In this document: positions 1,056 through 37,496 of the stretch, piece by piece
How positions within the stretch are numbered: the stretch's first letter is position 1
How the letters are laid out: the number at the start of each line of letters is the position of its first letter
Assembly (NCBI GenBank): GCA_965370045.1
Contig: CBDUSI010000001.1
Coordinates: 18,691-82,690, forward strand
Origin: an uncultured bacterium
GTDB taxonomy: Bacteria > Planctomycetota > SZUA-567 > JAKLDR01
DNA length: 64,000 bases
Reading direction: 5' to 3'
Position numbers and translations under genes: made by a program
Notes under the pieces: generated by a model
What the model was told of the DNA's origin: nothing
The model's database searches: none
The model's input: only the letters and a program-made list of their open reading frames with translations

Positions 1056-1327
1056 GCGTCACCTCCTCGCAGTCCCGGCATTCTTCACAATATGCGCGCG
1101 GCGTCAAGAGGTCGGCCACGCCGCCGGAGAAGCCCGGTTTGGTCGGTTACGCCTGGCTGGCGCTGCCCTCGGCGGCGCGGACCCTCAAGCTGGCCGGCCC
1201 GGTTGCCTGCTGGCAGCCGGGTAAAATCAGAAGAATAGTCCCGGAACGCCGAGTCGCGGCGCGTAAGTCGCCCTTATGCGCGCGTTACGGCAATGTGCAC
1301 TATTCTGGCGATTTGCGCATATTCTGC

Positions 1328-1356
1328 TTGACATTCGTGGTAGTTCGGTGTATAAT
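1328..1356 (+). promoter_or_regulatory. perfect sigma70 consensus promoter: TTGACA (1328-1333), 17-nt spacer, TATAAT (1351-1356)
   Basis: Read directly as cTTGACAttcgtggtagttcggtgTATAATac. Nearly the same element recurs at 36467-36495, sharing cttgacattcg and tataataca, upstream of a paralogous gene. Confidence 0.7.
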
Positions 1357-1373
1357 ACATGCAGGTGACGATG

Positions 1374-2111
1374 ATGAGCGATATGACGCGCGAGCAGTAC
1401 GAGACCCTGGCGTTGGACCGCCTGGCCGAGCTGGCCCGCAGCGAGAACGAGCGAATCGCGCTGGAAGCCGCGCGGACGCTCCTCGTTCACCTGCGGCTTT
1501 CTTTACCACCAAGACACCAAGACACAAAGGACAACGGAGAGGCTGGTCGCGGCGAGGCGGTCAATCACGCTCTCGCTTCTCTGCCCGCGCTCCCGGGGTA
1601 CGGGTCCGTCGCGGCGGGGGCCGTTTCGCAGGAAGGTGAGGGATGTTCGCGAGACAATAGTTCTTCTTCGTGCCTTGGTGACTTGGTGGTTGATAAGGAC
1701 GTTGAAAGAGCCCGGGAGCATGTCCTGCGGGCGATGGACAGGTGCGCGGGATTGCTTGAACACGAAAACCCCTTCGTCGTCCTGCGCGCCGCGCGGGAAA
1801 TCTTGCAGCATTACCGTCATCTGTGCCGCGAGCGGTTCAAGTGGACGGCGTGGTCCGAGGTGAGAGAACGCAGCGCGAAGAAGCGGCGGGGCGTGGCCGC
1901 GCTCGCCAAGGTCGCGGGCCTGGGCCGCGATCTCGCGGGGATTCGCGGGGCCATCGACCGGGAAGAGAACTCCGAGGGCGCGGAGGAATACCGGGTCTGT
2001 CCGCCTCCTCCGATTGACTGGGACGCCACTCAGGAAGGCCCTTCTGGGTCTGCGTCCCACGAAGAAGGGGAGGGCAGCCCGCCCGACCCCGACGAACGCG
2101 CGCCGCCCTGA
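1374..2111 (+). CDS. hypothetical protein, paralog A of the 36550..37191 gene (shared SENER-I/V-AL-x-AA-x-x-LL motif)
   Basis: ORF track 1359..2111. The ATG at 1359 lies inside the -10/TSS region, so MSD at 1374 or MMSD at 1371 is the more likely start (aggtga 1363-1368 just upstream). It shares the N-terminal MSD and the ENER(I/V)AL(E/R)AA..LL motif with the 36550 gene. Pro/Glu/Gly-rich acidic C-terminus. Confidence 0.55.
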   Translation: MSDMTREQYETLALDRLAELARSENERIALEAARTLLVHLRLSLPPRHQDTKDNGEAGRGEAVNHALASLPALPGYGSVAAGAVSQEGEGCSRDNSSSSCLGDLVVDKDVERAREHVLRAMDRCAGLLEHENPFVVLRAAREILQHYRHLCRERFKWTAWSEVRERSAKKRRGVAALAKVAGLGRDLAGIRGAIDREENSEGAEEYRVCPPPPIDWDATQEGPSGSASHEEGEGSPPDPDERAPP

Positions 2112-2178
2112 GTTGGGAGGCGGGGGGCGTGAAGGGTGAAGAGTGAATAGCGGGGAATGGAGCGCTCTCGACTGGCTC

Positions 2179-2202
2179 CTCCAGACTCCGGACTCCAGAC
2201 TG
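2179..2202. repeat. 24-nt element of three tandem heptamers: ctccaga ctccgga ctccaga ctg
   Basis: Direct heptamer repeats read in the sequence. A 22/24-identical copy (ctccagactccagcctccagactg) lies at 37424-37447. Both copies are downstream of the paralogous MSD..ENER genes. This copy is 41 bp upstream of the -35 of the 2243 promoter. Confidence 0.6.
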
Positions 2203-2242
2203 AACAACTGGCCACTGACCACCGGCAACCGAACAGGATGTC

Positions 2243-2271
2243 TTGACATGTTGCCGTATGACCGGTAGATT
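2243..2271 (+). promoter_or_regulatory. sigma70-like promoter: TTGACA (2243-2248), 17-nt spacer, TAGATT (2266-2271)
   Basis: tcTTGACAtgttgccgtatgaccggTAGATT, followed by the RBS gaggagg and the ATG at 2299. Confidence 0.5.
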
Positions 2272-2298
2272 AGTGTAGGCGAGAGGAGGCGTGGACCG

Positions 2299-2712
2299 AT
2301 GGATGTTAAGGGAGCATATCGCGCTTTTGGACCACTCACGATTGCCATTCGCAGGCGCAAGGGCCGCTATGAAGCTCTGATCAAGGAGTTTGCCATCTGG
2401 GCGGAGGCCCACAGTCAAGTCCGGGTATGGACCGAACTGGAAAAGCTGGTGGCGGGCTACATACAGTCTCAGGCTGTTGCGCTGAGCCGCCACGATTACC
2501 GCAAGGTGCGTTTCGGCAATCCCGTTCCTCGCGAAGAGTGGGAGAAGTGGCGTCGGGGAGAAATCTACAAGACGGCCATCGAGGTCCATGTCACCCAGGC
2601 CAAGATGCCGTACAAGAAGGTCCGGCCCCTGCCCGACATCCGGGAGTTCATCAGCATTGACGAGCCCTTCGTCAGACAGCGGGATGTGCAACTGAGCCCC
2701 ATTGGGGCCTGA
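2299..2712 (+). CDS. hypothetical protein; possible HicB-like partner (antitoxin candidate) of the downstream HicA
   Basis: Complete 137-aa ORF with a strong RBS (gaggagg). Its stop is 5 nt before the hicA-like gene, so the two are probably co-transcribed. No clear DNA-binding domain can be recognised. The HicB assignment is inferred from position only. Confidence 0.45.
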   Translation: MDVKGAYRAFGPLTIAIRRRKGRYEALIKEFAIWAEAHSQVRVWTELEKLVAGYIQSQAVALSRHDYRKVRFGNPVPREEWEKWRRGEIYKTAIEVHVTQAKMPYKKVRPLPDIREFISIDEPFVRQRDVQLSPIGA

Positions 2713-2717
2713 CCCCC

Positions 2718-2954
2718 GTGCCTTCGCCCATACGGAAAGGCGCCTTCAAGCGCAAGCTGCGCCGCCTGGGCTGCACCCTGACCAAAGAACGGGGGAAGGG
2801 AAGTCATTTCTGCGCCGAGCGTGTTCTTGAGGACGGCACGGTGCGGACCTACTACTTCCCTACGGTTCACGGCCGCCATGTCAAGGCGGAGTACGTAAAA
2901 TACGGCGTGATTGCGGCCCTGGGGTTCACCCGAAAAGACTGGAACAACGCTTGA
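2718..2954 (+). CDS. hicA: HicA-family (YcfA-like) mRNA interferase toxin
   Basis: 78 aa. KRKLRRLGCTLTKERGKGSHFCAE matches the HicA/YcfA dsRBD-like core with the conserved G-S-H. Size and basic composition are typical of the family. Confidence 0.7.
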   Translation: MPSPIRKGAFKRKLRRLGCTLTKERGKGSHFCAERVLEDGTVRTYYFPTVHGRHVKAEYVKYGVIAALGFTRKDWNNA

Positions 2955-2983
2955 TTGACTTGCACCCTTCCAGGCGCCATACT
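2955..2983 (+). promoter_or_regulatory. candidate promoter TTGACT-N17-CATACT upstream of the lipoprotein gene
   Basis: ttgaTTGACTtgcacccttccaggcgcCATACT, about 130 nt upstream of the ATG at 3112. A 10-bp tandem repeat ccggattccg x2 (3038-3057) lies in the leader. Confidence 0.3.
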
Positions 2984-3111
2984 GGATGGGCAGAAATGGG
3001 AGCACCGTGAGGGCTGCGGGAAATGGGTGAACTGTCCCCGGATTCCGCCGGATTCCGAATTGTGGGAACCTTCCGGAGTGCTGAGCGTCTAAAGACAGGG
3101 GAGGGACTACT

Positions 3112-4536
3112 ATGACAATGAAGACCCTCGTCGTGGCCGCCAGTGCGGCACTGGCCGTTCTCTTGGCGGCTGGCTGCCAGCCTCATCCACCCGAGCCCGT
3201 CACAGCAGTACTGGCTCCGCTACCAGATCCCGGCCAGCCCTGGCCGAAAGGAGATACAACCGTTCTGGCGCGCTGCGTGAAGACGGACTTCTACGCGACC
3301 ACGACTCGCGGACAGTGGCGCTCGGAGTGGTTCTTCTACAGGCTTCACGTCATACGAACGGAGAGAGGACGCTGGCCACACTCCGAGGTGAAGCTTGTGT
3401 GGCGGAAGCGGCTTCCCCTCCCCGGCTCGAAGTGGCGCTACAAGATGGCAGCTGATCCTTTTCACCTCAGCGGTGTCTTTGCCATCGACCTGGATACCAG
3501 CAAGAGCCCGGCACAAATTGTGGGCCATGAGCGACGCAGTTGCCTCCCGCCGCACGCCAAGCTGACGCTGTCTGCGCTGCAGAAGCCGAGCAAGGTAATG
3601 CTGGACCGCATGACTGCTAAGGTCCATGAACGGGCGAGACGAGTGGGAACACGCACCGATCTGCGGATAAGGTTCGTGGAGGCAACACGCGACAGCTATG
3701 TTGTCTATCACGATTACGAAACCTTGGTGTTGGACAAGAAGTCGCTGAAGGTCAGTCCTTTCGGGGTCAAGAAATGCGCTGGTGCCTTCTGGCAGGAGGG
3801 GCCCTGGTACTGGAAGCGCACATATCCCCGCGCCAAGCTGGGCCTGAGCGGCAAGGTCGCGGACGTCCGCTGCGGACCGTGGATAGCCATCAGTTGCGGA
3901 GCGGCTACCGGCATCCTGGAAGGCGATGTCTTCGAAATACGGCACGGTGGCAAGAAGCTGGGGCGTGCTAAGGTCTCTACGGTCTGGAACAAGTTCGCGG
4001 GACTCAAGCCGTTGGACTCGATGCGCTGGAAAGCTGGTGACGATGCCGTGCTGGTTCAACTGGCGCCGAAGAAGCCGATCAACAAGACACCCTACGCAGA
4101 ACACTTGACAGGCACTTGGCGTGATGGGCAAGCTTCCTTTGACTTTAAGATTCTCAAGGGAAGGCGGCGAGGGTTCTTCAAGGCAACGATCACGATCCGC
4201 AATCTCACAGACAAGCCCCTGTTGTTCCCGACGCCGATGTTGATGCCGGCCGCCGGCGATACCAACAAGAACAACATACGGGTCTACGATGCGAAAGGCA
4301 ACAAGTTAGGATTCGGCGCCTCACATCCGCATAGTGATGGCTTAAGGCCGGTGGTCGAGATTCCGGCGCAGACCTCCAGGTCATGGAGCTTCCAGTTGAA
4401 GAAGTACTGGCCGCAGATGTCCTCGCCAGGTGTCTACGCCGTCGAGTTCTGGTACTTCTCCAATGAGAACCATCTCTTGGCTACGTGGAAGGGGCGAGTG
4501 AAGATGTACCACTTACTGATCAAGAGTGGGAACTAG
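3112..4536 (+). CDS. hypothetical lipoprotein (474 aa), noticeably lower GC than its surroundings
   Basis: Lipobox LLAAGC after an N-terminal signal peptide. RBS ggggaggg 6 nt upstream. No recognisable domain. GC is roughly 55-58% against about 70% elsewhere. Confidence 0.6.
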   Translation: MTMKTLVVAASAALAVLLAAGCQPHPPEPVTAVLAPLPDPGQPWPKGDTTVLARCVKTDFYATTTRGQWRSEWFFYRLHVIRTERGRWPHSEVKLVWRKRLPLPGSKWRYKMAADPFHLSGVFAIDLDTSKSPAQIVGHERRSCLPPHAKLTLSALQKPSKVMLDRMTAKVHERARRVGTRTDLRIRFVEATRDSYVVYHDYETLVLDKKSLKVSPFGVKKCAGAFWQEGPWYWKRTYPRAKLGLSGKVADVRCGPWIAISCGAATGILEGDVFEIRHGGKKLGRAKVSTVWNKFAGLKPLDSMRWKAGDDAVLVQLAPKKPINKTPYAEHLTGTWRDGQASFDFKILKGRRRGFFKATITIRNLTDKPLLFPTPMLMPAAGDTNKNNIRVYDAKGNKLGFGASHPHSDGLRPVVEIPAQTSRSWSFQLKKYWPQMSSPGVYAVEFWYFSNENHLLATWKGRVKMYHLLIKSGN

Positions 4537-4719
4537 CGGATCGCCGATGACCGCCCCCGCCCCTTCGTGGAGACTGAAGCAATCCGGGGCCGCTGACCGA
4601 TAAGACACCCGACAGACGGGGCGGGCGGTAGGTTCCTCCCGACGGCAACTAGCAACCGGCTACCGGCTACCGGCTCAGAGCCCCTTGCGGTCCCGGCTGC
4701 GGCGGTCCTTGACCAGGCG

Positions 4720-26062: not shown

Positions 26063-27697
26063 CTACTTAGAGTGCTTCTTGGCCAGCTCATCGGCGCGGG
26101 CCTGGAGCGTGGCGGCCAGCTTGGCCTTGCCGTCGGCCTTGGCCTTGGCGGCCAGCCCGGCCAGCTTCTTGGCGAACTGGGCGCCCTGGCCGGCCTTGAG
26201 GTACAGCTTCTCGGCCTTCTTCCAGGCGCCGGAATCCAAGTCCAGGTGGGAAGCGACCAGGTAGTACGTGGAGGCGTCCACCAGGTCGGCGGGCTCGGTC
26301 GCGAACTTCTCGAGCAGCTCGCCGATGCGCAGCACGGCGGCGGCCGCGTCCTTCCCGCGCGAGCCGTCGGCGGTCCTCATGGTAATCGCCGCGTAGTAGT
26401 AGGGCAGGGCGGCCTCGGCGCGCCCCCGGGCGGTCTTGCCCGCGGCCTTCTCCAGCGCCTGGGCCTTGGCGAAGGCGGCTCCGGGAGCGGCCACGTCGCC
26501 GACCTTGACGGACACGAACTTCCTGATGGGAACGACCGCCGGCTTCTTGGGCTCAGGCTTTTTCGGTTCGGGCTTCTTGGGTTCCGGCTTCTTCGGCTCG
26601 GGCTTCTTGACCGCCTTGGCCTTGTACTTCTCGACCTTGGCGATCATCGCCGCGGCTTTCCGGTCGTAGCCGGTGCCCGCGCCGGACTTCTTGGCCACGC
26701 CGAAGGCCTTGATGGCCGCGTCGTAGTCCTTGGGATTCTTCTTGTAGTCGGCCAGCGCCATCTCGTAGAGCGCCCGGGCATTGGCGGTCTTGGCACGCTT
26801 GGCCGCGGCGGCCTTGAGTACCTTGAGCTTGGCGATCATCTTGTCAGCGCTCTTCTCGTACCTGGTGCCGGCCGCGGCCTTCTTGACCTCCTGGTAGCGC
26901 ACGATGGCCGCGTCGTAGTTCTTGCGATCGGCCTTCCAGGCTTTCTCCGCCGCGACCAACATCCCCTTGGCCTGACGGGCCTTGGCCACCGCGGAGTCGA
27001 CCTTCTTGGGCTCCGGCTTCTTGGGTTCCGGTTTCTTGGGCTCGGGCTTTTTCGGCTCGGGCTTCTTGGGCTCCGGCTTCTTGACCGCCTTGGCCTTGTA
27101 CCTCTCGACCTTGGCGATCATCGCCGCGGCTTTCCGGTCGTAGCCGGTGCCCGCGCCGGACTTCTTGGCCACGCCGAAGGCCTTGATGGCCGCGTCGTAG
27201 TCCTTGGGATTCTTCTTGTAGTCGGCCAGCGCCATCTCGTAGAGCGCCCGGGCATTGGCGGTCTTGGCACGCTTGGCCGCGGCGGCCTTGAGTACCTTGA
27301 GCTTGGCGATCATCTTGTCAGCGCTCTTCTCGTACCTGGTGCCGGCCGCGGCCTTCTTGACCTCCTGGTAGCGCACGATGGCCGCGTCGTAGTTCTTGCG
27401 ATCGGCCTTCCAGGCTTTCTCCGCCGCGACCAGCATCGCCCTGGCCTGACGCGCCTTGGCCACCGCGGGGTCGACCTTCTTGGGCTCGGGTTTCTTGGGT
27501 TCCGGTTTCTTCGGTTCCGGCTTCTTCGGCTCGGGCTTCTTGACCGCGGGAAGCGGCAGCTTGGTCCCATCGGCCGGACAGTACTTGGTGCCGTCCTTGA
27601 GCTTCCGCTTGCAGGTAGGACACTCCACCGCAAGGGCCAGCGCGGCGGTCAGGAAAACCGCAGCGACGGCGATAATCGAGGCCTTGATAAGACGCAT
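26063..27697 (-). CDS. membrane-anchored TPR-like repeat protein with (KKPEP)n linkers and an internal 158-aa tandem duplication
   Basis: ATG 27697 with RBS gggagg. N-terminal TM anchor, CPTC..YCP zinc-ribbon-like segment, then two near-identical 158-aa units separated by KKPEPKKPEP stretches, then a TPR-like C-terminal domain. The track ORF extends to 28666, but that part is antisense to the heparinase gene. Confidence 0.65.
   Translation of the reverse strand: MRLIKASIIAVAAVFLTAALALAVECPTCKRKLKDGTKYCPADGTKLPLPAVKKPEPKKPEPKKPEPKKPEPKKVDPAVAKARQARAMLVAAEKAWKADRKNYDAAIVRYQEVKKAAAGTRYEKSADKMIAKLKVLKAAAAKRAKTANARALYEMALADYKKNPKDYDAAIKAFGVAKKSGAGTGYDRKAAAMIAKVERYKAKAVKKPEPKKPEPKKPEPKKPEPKKPEPKKVDSAVAKARQAKGMLVAAEKAWKADRKNYDAAIVRYQEVKKAAAGTRYEKSADKMIAKLKVLKAAAAKRAKTANARALYEMALADYKKNPKDYDAAIKAFGVAKKSGAGTGYDRKAAAMIAKVEKYKAKAVKKPEPKKPEPKKPEPKKPEPKKPAVVPIRKFVSVKVGDVAAPGAAFAKAQALEKAAGKTARGRAEAALPYYYAAITMRTADGSRGKDAAAAVLRIGELLEKFATEPADLVDASTYYLVASHLDLDSGAWKKAEKLYLKAGQGAQFAKKLAGLAAKAKADGKAKLAATLQARADELAKKHSK
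26530..27555. repeat. tandem direct duplication, period 474 bp, copies about 98% identical (within a coding region)
   Basis: Unit starting at 26606 (cttgaccgccttggccttgtacttctcgacc...) repeats at 27080 with only a few substitutions. The units are flanked by ggcttcttgggytccggyttctt (KKPEP-encoding) short repeats. Confidence 0.85.
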
Positions 27698-27850
27698 CGC
27701 ATTTCCTCCCAAAGAGCTGCAAATCGCGGCCCGCCGGACCGCTCCAGACCCCTCGGCGGCGGCCGCTTGGACCCACGAATATCTCCGTAACAGCGCTTCG
27801 GTCAAGGGGAAAAGGGCTGCTTGCGTCGGGCGCAGGGCGGGCGATAATCG

Positions 27851-34597: not shown

Positions 34598-36295
34598 GTG
34601 TCAAACCTGACGCGCGACATAGGATCGGAAGACCTGAAGATCCTCGATGTTGTCAATCTGCTCAGAGAAGACAAATATCTGATCCCAACGTTTCAGCGGG
34701 ACTTTGTCTGGGATGCTCAGAGCATCAAGAAGCTCTGGGACAGCATGTTTCGCTTCTATCCTATCGGCAGCTTGCTCTACTGGGAGACCGACACCTACCT
34801 GCACACACACCGCAGACTGGGTGGCTTTGAGTTCCCGCACGACGAAGATACGGTGCGCAAGTTCAAGGAATGGAAGTACATCCTTGATGGTCAGCAACGG
34901 GCCACCTCGATTCTCGTCTCTATGCTTGGCGGCAAGGGGCGAGTAGAAGACGAAGAGAATTTCGACTATACGCTCTTCTTCGACGCGACAAAGGCGGAGT
35001 TCTTCTTCCCCACCGAGTTGGAAACGCGCAAGAGGGCCGTGCCTGACGAACGTTTTCTCGTCCGGGTCCGCGATGTACCCGAATGGAAATTCACCTTCTA
35101 CAAGGACATATCGAGCGCCGAGGGTTTCAACGATGAGATTGAGCACAACCTCAACCAAATTCAGCGTATGTTCACCGACTACAAGTTATCAGTCATTCGG
35201 ATCAAGGGCGTGGCGGTCAGTGAGGTCTGCGAGATTTTCGAGCGAATCAACCAAGAAGGGAAGAAACTCCATCCAGTGGACATCGTTGTCGCACGCACGT
35301 ATAGAAACGAGCAGGACGGGAAGCCCGGTTTCTATCTGAGAGACCGCCTGCAGGGGCTAAAGGACATCTTGATCGAAAACGGTAGCCGCTGGCAGGAAAT
35401 GGACGATCTTAGCATCATTCAAATGGTGGCTGTTTGCTTGCGAAAGCGGCATACTGAGGTACGCAATCCTTTCGGGATCACGCCCGCCGCCTTGGACAAC
35501 TTGACGACCCGCCACTTCGAAGAGAACTGGGAGACATGCCAGAAGACGATTCTGGAGACCCTCAAATTCCTCATGGACCAGAAGATTCTCGGTCCGTCAA
35601 TGATGCCCTTTACCTATCTAGCGTTGCCCGTGTGTTATTACTTCGACCGGAACAAGACGGTGAACCGGGATGTTGCCCGCCAGTGGTTCTGGTGGGCGGC
35701 ATTCGCGTTGGACCGGCTTAGTTCTTCGAGTGAGGTCTACGGTTTCTGTGAGGACTTTTTCGACCTACTGGAAAGTGGCAAGGAACCCAAGATACCGAAT
35801 CTTGTTCTATCCAAGACAAAACTCGTTCAGGCCAGTTACTACTATCGCAACGCCCTCAGCCGGGCTGTTCTTGCGTTCTTGGCCAACCAGCATCCGAAGG
35901 ACTTCAGTGACCCGCAAGCCGAGATCCTCGACAACGTGTATCTGCTCTTGTCACAGGCACCCAACTTGCATCACATCTATCCACAGAACTTCTTGAAGAA
36001 CGTTGAAGACCCGTCGGCAGATGCCGCGGCCAACAGCCTGATGAACATCTGCTATCTCCGGGCGCGGACCAACATCAAGATCAGTGATCGGAACCCGTTG
36101 GACTACTTCAAGGACTTCAAGAATGTGCGTAACTTCGAGGGAATCCTGGAGTCGCACTTGATCCCCGCTGAATTCACCGAGCGCGACAGCTTCAGACCAA
36201 GTGACTACCGCGATTTCTTGTTCGCCAGGGTGGAACTCTTCAGTCAGCGTTTGAAGCAAGCGTTACCCGATGTGAGCGTACAGATCGTCGACTGA
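34598..36295 (+). CDS. GmrSD-family type IV (modification-dependent) restriction endonuclease, DUF262 + DUF1524/HNH single polypeptide
   Basis: N-terminal DUF262 motifs IPTFQRDFVWD and ILDGQQRATSI (DGQQR). C-terminal His-Me finger region LHHIYPQNFL...N. GTG start with RBS ggagg. GC is about 50% against about 70% in flanking genes. Confidence 0.85.
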   Translation: MSNLTRDIGSEDLKILDVVNLLREDKYLIPTFQRDFVWDAQSIKKLWDSMFRFYPIGSLLYWETDTYLHTHRRLGGFEFPHDEDTVRKFKEWKYILDGQQRATSILVSMLGGKGRVEDEENFDYTLFFDATKAEFFFPTELETRKRAVPDERFLVRVRDVPEWKFTFYKDISSAEGFNDEIEHNLNQIQRMFTDYKLSVIRIKGVAVSEVCEIFERINQEGKKLHPVDIVVARTYRNEQDGKPGFYLRDRLQGLKDILIENGSRWQEMDDLSIIQMVAVCLRKRHTEVRNPFGITPAALDNLTTRHFEENWETCQKTILETLKFLMDQKILGPSMMPFTYLALPVCYYFDRNKTVNRDVARQWFWWAAFALDRLSSSSEVYGFCEDFFDLLESGKEPKIPNLVLSKTKLVQASYYYRNALSRAVLAFLANQHPKDFSDPQAEILDNVYLLLSQAPNLHHIYPQNFLKNVEDPSADAAANSLMNICYLRARTNIKISDRNPLDYFKDFKNVRNFEGILESHLIPAEFTERDSFRPSDYRDFLFARVELFSQRLKQALPDVSVQIVD

Positions 36296-36466
36296 GCCGC
36301 CGGAATTCCGCGCCCGGAAGTCAAGACTTGCCTCAGTTGCCGGTGGTCGATTGCCGGTTATCAGAAGTCGCGAGCGTACGCCGGCCTCGATATCACCCTT
36401 TCGTCGCATCTAACCGACAGCCATACAGTCACTTACGCCTCATCAGCATTATTCTGTATTATCTTC

Positions 36467-36495
36467 TTGACATTCGGGGCGCTTCGCGCTATAAT
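36467..36495 (+). promoter_or_regulatory. perfect sigma70 consensus promoter: TTGACA (36467-36472), 17-nt spacer, TATAAT (36490-36495)
   Basis: tcTTGACAttcggggcgcttcgcgcTATAATacagc. Near-duplicate of the 1328-1356 promoter, with a shared upstream attctg motif. Confidence 0.7.
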
Positions 36496-36549
36496 ACAGC
36501 ATACACTGACCACTTGCGGCCCAAAGGGGCTATCTTAGGGGGGAGAACC

Positions 36550-37191
36550 ATGAGCGACAAGAACGTGGCGGAGAATGAATTGGGATTGCTGACTGAAATT
36601 GCATTGCTTCGGGCGCATGGACAAAGCTGGAAGGATATCGCCAGCGAGTTGGACGTAGAAAGGCCCCGGCTGCGGGAGGTTACCCGCGCGCACGGTGCGG
36701 TCTACTGGCGGCTGTTCGAGGAGGCCCAGCACCGCGCGTCACTGGAAGCGGCGGCAATGGCGCGGGCCAAACTGGAGACGCTGCTCGAAAGCGAAAACGA
36801 GCGCGTCGCCCTGCGCGCCGCCCAGGCGCTGCTCGGCGACCAGCGCGGCAAGGAGCGCAGCGCCGTCCTGCGCGATCGGAACGACATCCTGGCCGAGAAG
36901 GTCGTGGAGCGCCAGAAGGACGCCGAAAGCTGGCGGCAATTACGTGAAGCCGAAATGACCCTGGCCGAGTACCGCCGTGATGTAGAAAGGCGCATGCGCG
37001 ACGACTCCGAACCGTCGCTCTGGCAGAAGGCTTACAGCAAGCAGTACGGCGGCCGCACTGACAACGGCGGCAGCGACATCATCGCCCTGGCCCGCGCGGC
37101 CGTCGACGAGATGACCGACGAAAACGGCCGGCTCATTGACCCATTAGAGGCCAGGCGGTTACGCGAGGAAAAAAACGGCGAAGCGTCGTAA
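36550..37191 (+). CDS. hypothetical protein, paralog B of the 1374..2111 gene; N-terminal HTH-like segment
   Basis: RBS gggggag before ATG 36550. MSDKNV... N-terminus. LTEIALLRAHGQSWKDIASELDV resembles a sigma region-4/LuxR-type HTH. ESENERVALRAAQALL matches SENERIALEAARTLL in paralog A. Highly charged C-terminal half. Confidence 0.6.
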   Translation: MSDKNVAENELGLLTEIALLRAHGQSWKDIASELDVERPRLREVTRAHGAVYWRLFEEAQHRASLEAAAMARAKLETLLESENERVALRAAQALLGDQRGKERSAVLRDRNDILAEKVVERQKDAESWRQLREAEMTLAEYRRDVERRMRDDSEPSLWQKAYSKQYGGRTDNGGSDIIALARAAVDEMTDENGRLIDPLEARRLREEKNGEAS

Positions 37192-37423
37192 GTCACGGGC
37201 TTTCAGGGGCGCAGGTCATGACAAAACGGGAGATTCCGAACCACGGAGGACACGGAGGAGAAGAGACGGTTGCCACTCGGAGCGGCGCCTTCAGGTGCCC
37301 GACGAGGGGCAATTCACTTGCCAGAACCACGCCAGGGAGGGCGGAACCTCGACGGTTTGACACGAGGTCAAAAGACATCGTTTGGGGAAGGTAAGCCGAA
37401 GGAGAGAGCCCGGGACCAAGAGA

Positions 37424-37447
37424 CTCCAGACTCCAGCCTCCAGACTG
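37424..37447. repeat. 24-nt heptamer-repeat element, second copy: ctccaga ctccagc ctccaga ctg
   Basis: 22/24 identical to 2179-2202. Followed by a second small tandem repeat gttgaaaag x2 (37461-37478). Confidence 0.6.
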
Positions 37448-37496
37448 TGCCCCTTGGCGTCTTGGCGGTTGAAAAGTTGAAAAGCGGCCCGGCGGT

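Follow-up and report, generated by a model that had tools for sequence, protein, structure and literature searches.

Two short stretches of DNA from an uncultured bacterium, each built from about three copies of the heptamer CTCCAGA and each lying 3′ of a small gene, raise the question of whether they represent a dedicated element, such as an iterated protein-binding site or the end of a small mobile module, as a sequence-only reading had proposed, or an ordinary repeat that was copied together with its surroundings. The arrays were analyzed within a stretch of 64,000 nt (hereafter, the window), which comes from scaffold_47 of the ENA assembly ERZ23499000. The comparison loci were other scaffolds of that sample, all of which we take to belong to a single genome, and genomes and viral contigs in which the same heptamer is repeated.

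The two arrays and their surroundings

Reading the window directly placed array copy A, ctccagactccggactccagactg, at 2179–2202 and array copy B, ctccagactccagcctccagactg, at 37424–37447, both on the plus strand and exactly at the coordinates first given for them, and the two copies are identical at 22 of 24 positions. Each comprises approximately three heptamer units: copy A consists of CTCCAGA, CTCCGGA and CTCCAGA followed by CTG (3.3 units), and copy B, which with a preceding aga occupies 37421–37447, consists of CTCCAGA, CTCCAGC and CTCCAGA followed by CTG (3.7 units). TRF delimited them as CTCCAGA x3.3 (2179–2201) and AGACTCC x3.7 (37421–37446). A search for a perfect CTCCAGA triple allowing up to three mismatches matched only these two sites in the 64-kb window and had matches in none of 100 dinucleotide-preserving shuffles, which bears out the claim that they are the sole copies there. 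The identity between copies A and B results mostly from both sites being arrays of the CTCCAGA unit, and the informative feature that they have in common is that unit together with the ...CCAGACTG end.

Both arrays are intergenic by the gene calls of the window and start 67 nt after the stop codon of one gene, here called A-type (1374–2111; copy A), and 232 nt after that of a second, here called B-type (36550–37191; copy B); their position 3′ of these genes had thus been recognized correctly, but not the distances of 60 and 230 nt. Similarly, copy A does lie upstream of a −35 box (TTGACA at 2243), with 40 rather than 41 nt between them. The location between called genes agrees with the description of the arrays as non-coding, but the reason that had been offered for it, that a 7-nt period cannot code, does not hold, as three units make seven codons and the repeat is coding in phage contigs. 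Copy B is situated between convergent genes, and the sequence 3′ of it consists of further arrays and the terminal part of the convergent gene, with no promoter there.

The observation that the element is not a hairpin was upheld, with fold z-scores near zero for both intergenic regions (−0.06 and +0.12 versus shuffled sequences), and the CTCCAGA unit is not G-rich here and has no quadruplex potential. The fold scores bear on the idea that the arrays act at the RNA level, as a CUCC-rich repeat in a 3′ UTR that would work by anti-Shine–Dalgarno-like pairing or by binding a protein. Each unit does contain CUCC, and no terminator was predicted between either gene and its array, which makes read-through plausible. 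However, there was no stable or conserved structure and no Rfam match at the gathering score or at E values up to 1, by which RNA structure and known RNA families were rejected as candidates. Furthermore, in two of the sample scaffolds described below (L189 and L190) the array precedes the gene and has the opposite strand orientation, and in another the CTCCAGA unit is replaced (L194). We give very little credence to an RNA-level element.

According to TRF, AT-containing short tandem arrays are confined to two islands of the window with lower GC (0.53–0.64 versus 0.67–0.69 elsewhere), and the CTCCAGA 24-mer is one among approximately ten short arrays of these islands, most of them with a period of 7 or 8. 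Island A contains CACCAAGA x2.9 and the inverse CTTGGTGA x2.9, both within the A-type gene, GTGAAGR x2.7 (2129–2147, plus strand, near copy A), CTCCAGA x3.3, CCGGATTCCG x2, and ACCGGCT x3 (4655–4675), the last being between convergent genes at the end of the island. Island B contains CACGGAGGA x2 (37242–37259, plus strand), CTCCAGA x3.7 and, immediately 3′ of copy B, CTTGGCG x2 and GTTGAAAA x2.1 (together 37452–37484, plus strand). The tandem repeat that had been noticed after copy B is accordingly real, but it is the period-8 array of GTTGAAAA (37468–37484) and not two copies of gttgaaaag. Short arrays of many differing units also cluster around the other copies of the two gene families, and in ~100 kb of the sample, which is part of the genome only, approximately 12 of approximately 21 non-coding short arrays had a period of 7, with at least ten differing units. 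A large tandem repeat is present elsewhere in the window (26539–27732; period 474 nt, 2.5 copies, 83–95% identical, with 15-nt sub-repeats, CTTCTTGGGCTCCGG) and probably reflects repetitive coding sequence of the minus strand.

Locus A, its counterpart in L191 and an inserted cassette

The history of locus A could be traced by blastn comparison with L191, a scaffold of the same sample that carries another A-type gene. Window positions 1120–1509 matched L191 2746–3136 (85% identity), 1710–2194 matched 3307–3805 (75%) and 2955–3000 matched 3816–3861 (83%), such that the window has 761 nt (2194 to 2955) where L191 has 11 nt. The left part of this duplicated segment of ~1.1 kb (1120–2208, plus strand) contains a 3′ fragment of a DUF2752 gene (1120–1216), which is complete in L191 (2414–2842), then a TTGACA-17-TATAAT promoter (1328–1356), the A-type gene, a post-stop block and the array. 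The gene fragment at the left end points to locus A being the product of a segmental duplication and not of a defined mobile element. The right border is within a leader near 3000, and the array is therefore internal to the segment. In L191, the sequence 3′ of the A-type gene reads ...gtgaatagtggggaatggaaagctctctc, two CTCCAGA units, CTG, aaccaatcg and a TTGACT-17-CATACT promoter followed by ggatagggagaaatggg..., so that the homologous position has 2.3 units versus 3.3 at window A.

The comparison shows that what appears from its sequence to be a hicA-like cassette of ~740 nt was inserted in the window between array A and its TTGACT/CATACT promoter. The cassette (2209–2948, plus strand; GC 0.59) has its own promoter (2243–2271), a 137-aa ORF (2299–2712) with no Pfam match and a 78-aa HicA-like ORF (2718–2954) whose match to HicA_toxin PF07927 is weak (E 0.09, 13.3 bits, cut-off 27). 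It is bordered by a 12–13-nt direct repeat, AGACTGAACAAC (2197–2208) and AGACTGGAACAAC (2936–2948), of which the left copy overlaps the array end and the right copy includes the last codons of the HicA-like ORF. The original partner of array A (2955–3111, plus strand) comprises the TTGACT-17-CATACT promoter (2955–2983) and a leader, GGATGGGCAGAAATGGGAGC..., with CCGGATTCCG x2 at 3038–3057; it is homologous to L191 3816–3861, L189 and L190 and leads into a 474-aa lipoprotein gene (3112–4536). Without the cassette, the reconstructed distance from array A to the TTGACT promoter is 15 nt. The closeness of array A to the promoter of the hicB-like/hicA pair is thus secondary, and the tie that had been suggested between the two had to be abandoned.

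Since the cassette entered precisely at the 3′ boundary of array A, with border repeats that overlap the array end, one might suppose that the array is a recombination hot spot or an att-like terminal sequence that marks the point of cassette insertion or of cut-and-paste of the module, and indeed every copy has arrays and a ~120-nt block (see below) at the junctions where conserved blocks meet. However, the array lies inside the ~1.1-kb duplicated segment (1120 to the leader near 3000) rather than at its borders, the two ends of a module never carry the same array, and the flanking arrays differ in their unit. In addition, neither Pfam scans nor gene calls showed an integrase or transposase at any of the loci, the window has no tRNA, and the insertion is a single event. 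The proposal of an att-like or terminal sequence found no support in these comparisons, and we consider a recombinational role highly unlikely.

Separately, the center of the A-type gene is hypervariable yet in frame throughout the family. In the window it spans 1505–1690 (plus strand), is not homologous to the equivalent region of L191, and has at its edges the inverted octamer arrays CACCAAGA x2.9 and CTTGGTGA x2.9, which form a long hairpin (z −2.9).

Array copies beside two small-gene families

The two genes adjacent to the arrays had been called paralogs, which overstates their relationship: the A-type and B-type proteins have one helix motif in common (SENERxALxAA, ~29 columns; BLASTP E 4e-4, hhalign probability 71%) and their genes have similar consensus promoters. 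Neither protein matched a Pfam family. Both have small families, of 12 proteins each, and every member that was placed is on another scaffold of this sample, with unrelated genes around it (B-type in L188, L189 and L190; A-type in L191 and L194), which identifies both as dispersed multi-copy genes. No relatives of the A-type protein were found in a protein-based scan of JGI metagenomes, nor were relatives of either type found in viral contigs. A GmrSD-type restriction endonuclease gene (34598–36295; GmrSD_N E 9e-29, GC 0.53) is directly upstream of the B-type module of the window, a Type ISP restriction-modification gene follows the A-type gene of L194, and a HicA pair follows the B-type gene of L189; these neighbors suggest that A-type and B-type genes tend to occupy defense or accessory islands.

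The conserved core of the B-type module in the window (36343–37232, plus strand) comprises an upstream block, a TTGACA-17-TATAAT promoter (36467–36495), the B-type gene and a post-stop block ending in ggtcatgacaaaac, and it is separated from copy B by a small mobile block of ~120 nt (37269–37390, plus strand). In L189 and L190, array, promoter and leader form a unit that is located upstream of the B-type gene and divergent from it. That of L189 consists of (CTCCAGA) x4.3, CTGAGCGCTCC, TTGACT-17-CATACT and gaatgggcagaatggg, and that of L190 has two CTCCAGA units, whereas at the matching site upstream of the B-type gene in the window the array is absent (0 units). L188 has no arrays. L194, whose A-type copy has 53% identity, has neither a CTCCAGA array nor a TTGACT/CATACT promoter, and a degenerate heptamer array of ~7 units, GTYGGTK, directly follows the stop codon there.

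The ~120-nt block behaves as a miniature insertion, being found 3′ of the window B-type gene, within the 5′ portion of the L190 gene (455–574) and at ~3120–3215 in L194, and it is also present in frame inside the B-type protein P0006 and the A-type proteins P0018 and P0020. The fold signals of two copies of the block disagree (z −3.2 and 0). In L190 (340–620), the block stands between two alternative B-type 5′ ends that are arranged in tandem (MHQSEEEL... first, MSDKNVAEN... second), an arrangement that suggests recombination between two variants of the B-type family.

All five CTCCAGA arrays of at least two units in ~100 kb of non-redundant sample sequence have an A-type or B-type gene no more than 250 nt away, none being scattered, and all five end in CCAGACTG, an ending that occurs elsewhere in 5 of 137 arrays (at least 119 loci). 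In L191, L189 and L190, the array has the same orientation and is 8–12 nt upstream of the −35 box, and its promoter-proximal unit is always perfect. Given the same unit, the same rare CTG end and the fixed adjacency to a promoter, all the local copies derive from a single ancestral array that was duplicated along with the sequence around it. Across these copies, unit number takes the values of none, 2, 2.3, 3.3, 3.7 and 4.3, and internal units are degenerate (CTCCGGA, CTACGGA and CTCCAGC); together with the loss or replacement of the array at some loci, this means that the array is conserved neither in length nor in presence. The link to the two gene families that had been read from the window therefore stands for all five copies, but it stems from the ancestry of a duplicated segment and not from a dedicated element, and the conservation at homologous loci by which such an element might be recognized is poor (0 to 4.3 units, with a different heptamer array in the 53%-identical A-type copy). 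The module signature CCAGACTG...TTGACT...CATACTG had only two chance matches in metagenome contigs, in AT-rich DNA, which together with the empty A-type protein scan indicates that the array-promoter-leader module is lineage-restricted.

The regular arrangement of these modules might also be that of a heptad operator or activator site, at which a small DNA-binding protein would bind 7-bp units cooperatively and control the TTGACT-17-CATACT promoter. The HTH-bearing B-type protein would be a candidate for this role. It is plausibly a small DNA-binding protein, judging by an AlphaFold model (mean pLDDT 70) in which an N-terminal three-helix bundle (pLDDT 85–88) is followed by long helices and by sub-threshold matches to HTH_23 and HTH_38; a profile search returned ~95 remote relatives, which cover the HTH region only. 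The position of the array in L191, L189 and L190 and its reconstructed distance of 15 nt at locus A, the invariance of the proximal unit and the CTG end, and the divergent layout of regulator and target in L189 and L190 would all suit an operator. There is also a precedent in pSM19035, in which the operators and parS sites consist of 7–10 units of WATCACW that overlap the promoter and are bound by omega (ParB), a ribbon-helix-helix protein encoded beside them, and at least two direct or inverted 7-bp units suffice for tight binding (PMC9499535).

Like the omega sites, the local arrays are contiguous, non-palindromic 7-bp units at promoters, but their units are fewer and variable in number, any protein binding to them is putative (compare PMC9499535), and no RHH family was found beside the arrays in a Pfam scan of the window. 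Moreover, heptads are at a promoter in L191, L189 and L190 (8–12 nt from the −35 box) but not at window A, where the 740-nt insertion intervenes, or at window B, which is promoterless and whose neighboring B-type gene has no upstream array. The variation from 0 to 4.3 units with degenerate internal units, the arrayless L188 and the different unit in L194 are likewise difficult to reconcile with a binding site, as is the occupation of equivalent junctions by many other unit sequences. The B-type protein had no significant family or fold match, with nothing below E 0.3 in a Foldseek search against the PDB. Finally, phyla without these genes commonly have the same array, and there it is not followed by a −35 box (8 of 137 arrays versus 19 of 137 in the control, among the genome matches listed). 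Weighing these points, we view an operator as possible but unlikely.

CTCCAGA arrays in other genomes and the meaning of the two copies

A search for the pattern CTCCAGACTCCNGNCTCCAGA returned matches in 66 viral contigs and at least 119 genome loci, the latter from about a dozen phyla. They include many Pyrinomonadaceae and other Acidobacteriota, Planctomycetota, Bacteroidota (Chitinophagaceae), Hydrogenedentota, Cyanobacteria, Chloroflexota, Dehalococcoidia, Gemmatimonadota and others. None of the genome and viral matches listed resembles the window or encodes an A-type or B-type relative. Among the genome matches listed, the CTCCAGA-type arrays had 2.1–17.1 units (median 4.6), another short-period array was no more than 150 nt away from 104 of 156 of them, and a period of 7 was found in 457 of ~917 TRF arrays, with other units in 301 of these 457. 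Arrays that were at least 60 codons deep in an open frame were counted as embedded in coding sequence, with random positions of the same loci as a control, and by this test 29% of the arrays in the genome matches listed were embedded in long open frames versus 68% of random positions. The sequence-only reading had held that many unrelated copies scattered through the genome would indicate a generic simple-sequence repeat (SSR); such unrelated copies do exist across genomes, at the at least 119 loci, but within the ~100 kb of the sample the copies are not scattered.

An inverted partner within 200 nt, and thus a potential hairpin, was present for 74 of 156 arrays among the matches listed (L067–L185; e.g., L157, L165, L173 and L181), and inverted heptamer-array pairs were especially common in Pyrinomonadaceae and other Acidobacteriota among these matches. 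At L155 (from 4807), L166 (from 1140) and L167 (from 82), loci of a Blastocatellia MAG and of another MAG labelled Actinomycetota, a conserved ~45-nt leader (gaaaaaa.acTTGAC...cgct) precedes arrays of 10–17 units, which suggests a separate repeated element built around the CTCCAGA heptamer.

In the viral contigs (IMG/VR loci L001–L066), 57 of 61 arrays were in long open frames. For example, in L014 (6627–7487), (CTCCAGA)3–4 codes for the linker ...SQTPDSRLQTKT... of a conserved 286-aa ORF, and the DNA context of these phage arrays is strongly conserved. A link to the binding sites of phage small terminases was considered and rejected, given that the phage array is a coding linker in this ORF and had no match among annotated phages.

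Heptameric SSRs of bacteria are over-represented, intergenic, length-variable and often arranged in inverted pairs, and an origin by slippage has been proposed for them (PMC4692102). The examples in that source, which cites Mazel 1990 and Mrazek 2007, are the STRR heptamers of Calothrix and Nostoc and GGGAATC of Xanthomonas; they differ in both length and sequence among related genomes, and their function is given as unresolved (PMC4692102). The CTCCAGA arrays agree with this class in having head-to-tail 7-nt units, usually in 2 to ~20 copies, that are mostly intergenic and vary between related loci, in the frequency of inverted pairs, in the many differing units at the genome loci matched and in having no demonstrated function. 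Of the features by which STRR-like SSRs are recognized, at least two head-to-tail 7-nt units, a non-coding location and variation of unit number at homologous loci were found here, and an abundance of period-7 arrays with differing units is clear at the genome loci matched. Unlike scattered SSRs (PMC4692102), the copies in the sample are tied to one duplicated promoter module.

Two other kinds of repeat were also compared. In the hmw1A/hmw2A genes of H. influenzae, an (ATCTTTC)n tract of 11–63 units lies in the transcribed 5′ UTR and forms a hairpin that is processed by RNase III (PMC12721329). As in that system, a 7-nt SSR is located in a regulatory region and differs in unit number between paralogous copies, but the local arrays have 2–4 units, are upstream of the −35 box and are unstructured (PMC12721329); a phase-variable promoter SSR of the hmw type (>10 units) was rejected because they are far too short and placed differently. 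REP/MITE-like repeats resemble the local features in being multi-copy short non-coding blocks at gene junctions, and the ~120-nt block acts as a miniature insertion, but the 24-mer has no terminal inverted repeats, palindrome or target-site duplication of its own.

Taken together, we think it fairly probable that (CTCCAGA)n is a slippage-prone heptanucleotide SSR that hitch-hiked in a duplicated promoter module and that neither of its window copies has a sequence-specific role where it now lies. The array belongs to the 7-nt arrays that are over-represented in bacterial non-coding DNA and would have gained and lost units by slipped-strand mispairing. One such array may then have joined a small repeated segment made up of the array, 8–12 nt, the TTGACT-17-CATACT promoter and the conserved leader, and this segment, placed beside the two multi-copy families of small genes, would have been spread by segmental duplication, which would account for two similar copies near the two genes in the window. 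We infer slippage as the resizing mechanism, and at most the arrays would act as a variable-length tract upstream of a promoter. Nothing favors a dedicated binding site or a mobile-element end for the 24-mers. Against the SSR reading, it is important to note that the constant orientation, the 8–12-nt spacing and the perfect proximal unit in three intact modules are operator-like too, and that within ~100 kb every CTCCAGA array is linked to the module, with none scattered. In addition, arrays of 2–4 units slip rarely, and the differences between copies may be old and not dynamic. A more far-reaching version of the operator idea combines a putative heptad operator for the B-type HTH protein with the promoter-leader, possibly a small RNA, in a lineage-specific self-duplicating module, and would attribute the GACTCCA-type heptads of many phyla to a shared heptad-reading protein or mechanism and not to neutral slippage; we consider this combination decidedly unlikely.

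What appeared to be a conserved regulatory or att-like element is better placed in a recognizable class, that of a heptanucleotide SSR in a duplicated segment, and the case cautions against over-reading similar short matches in scans of metagenomes. If a heptad operator were nevertheless true, it would provide a new regulator-operator pair and a functional route to the long-standing puzzle of why bacteria have an excess of 7-nt repeats. The arrays are an ordinary kind of feature with a locally interesting anatomy: an array-promoter-leader module, a cassette precisely at the edge of an array and a 120-nt block that two gene families accommodate in frame together illustrate, within a small natural system, the remodeling of the intergenic DNA of an uncultured bacterium by short repeats, mini-insertions and cassettes.
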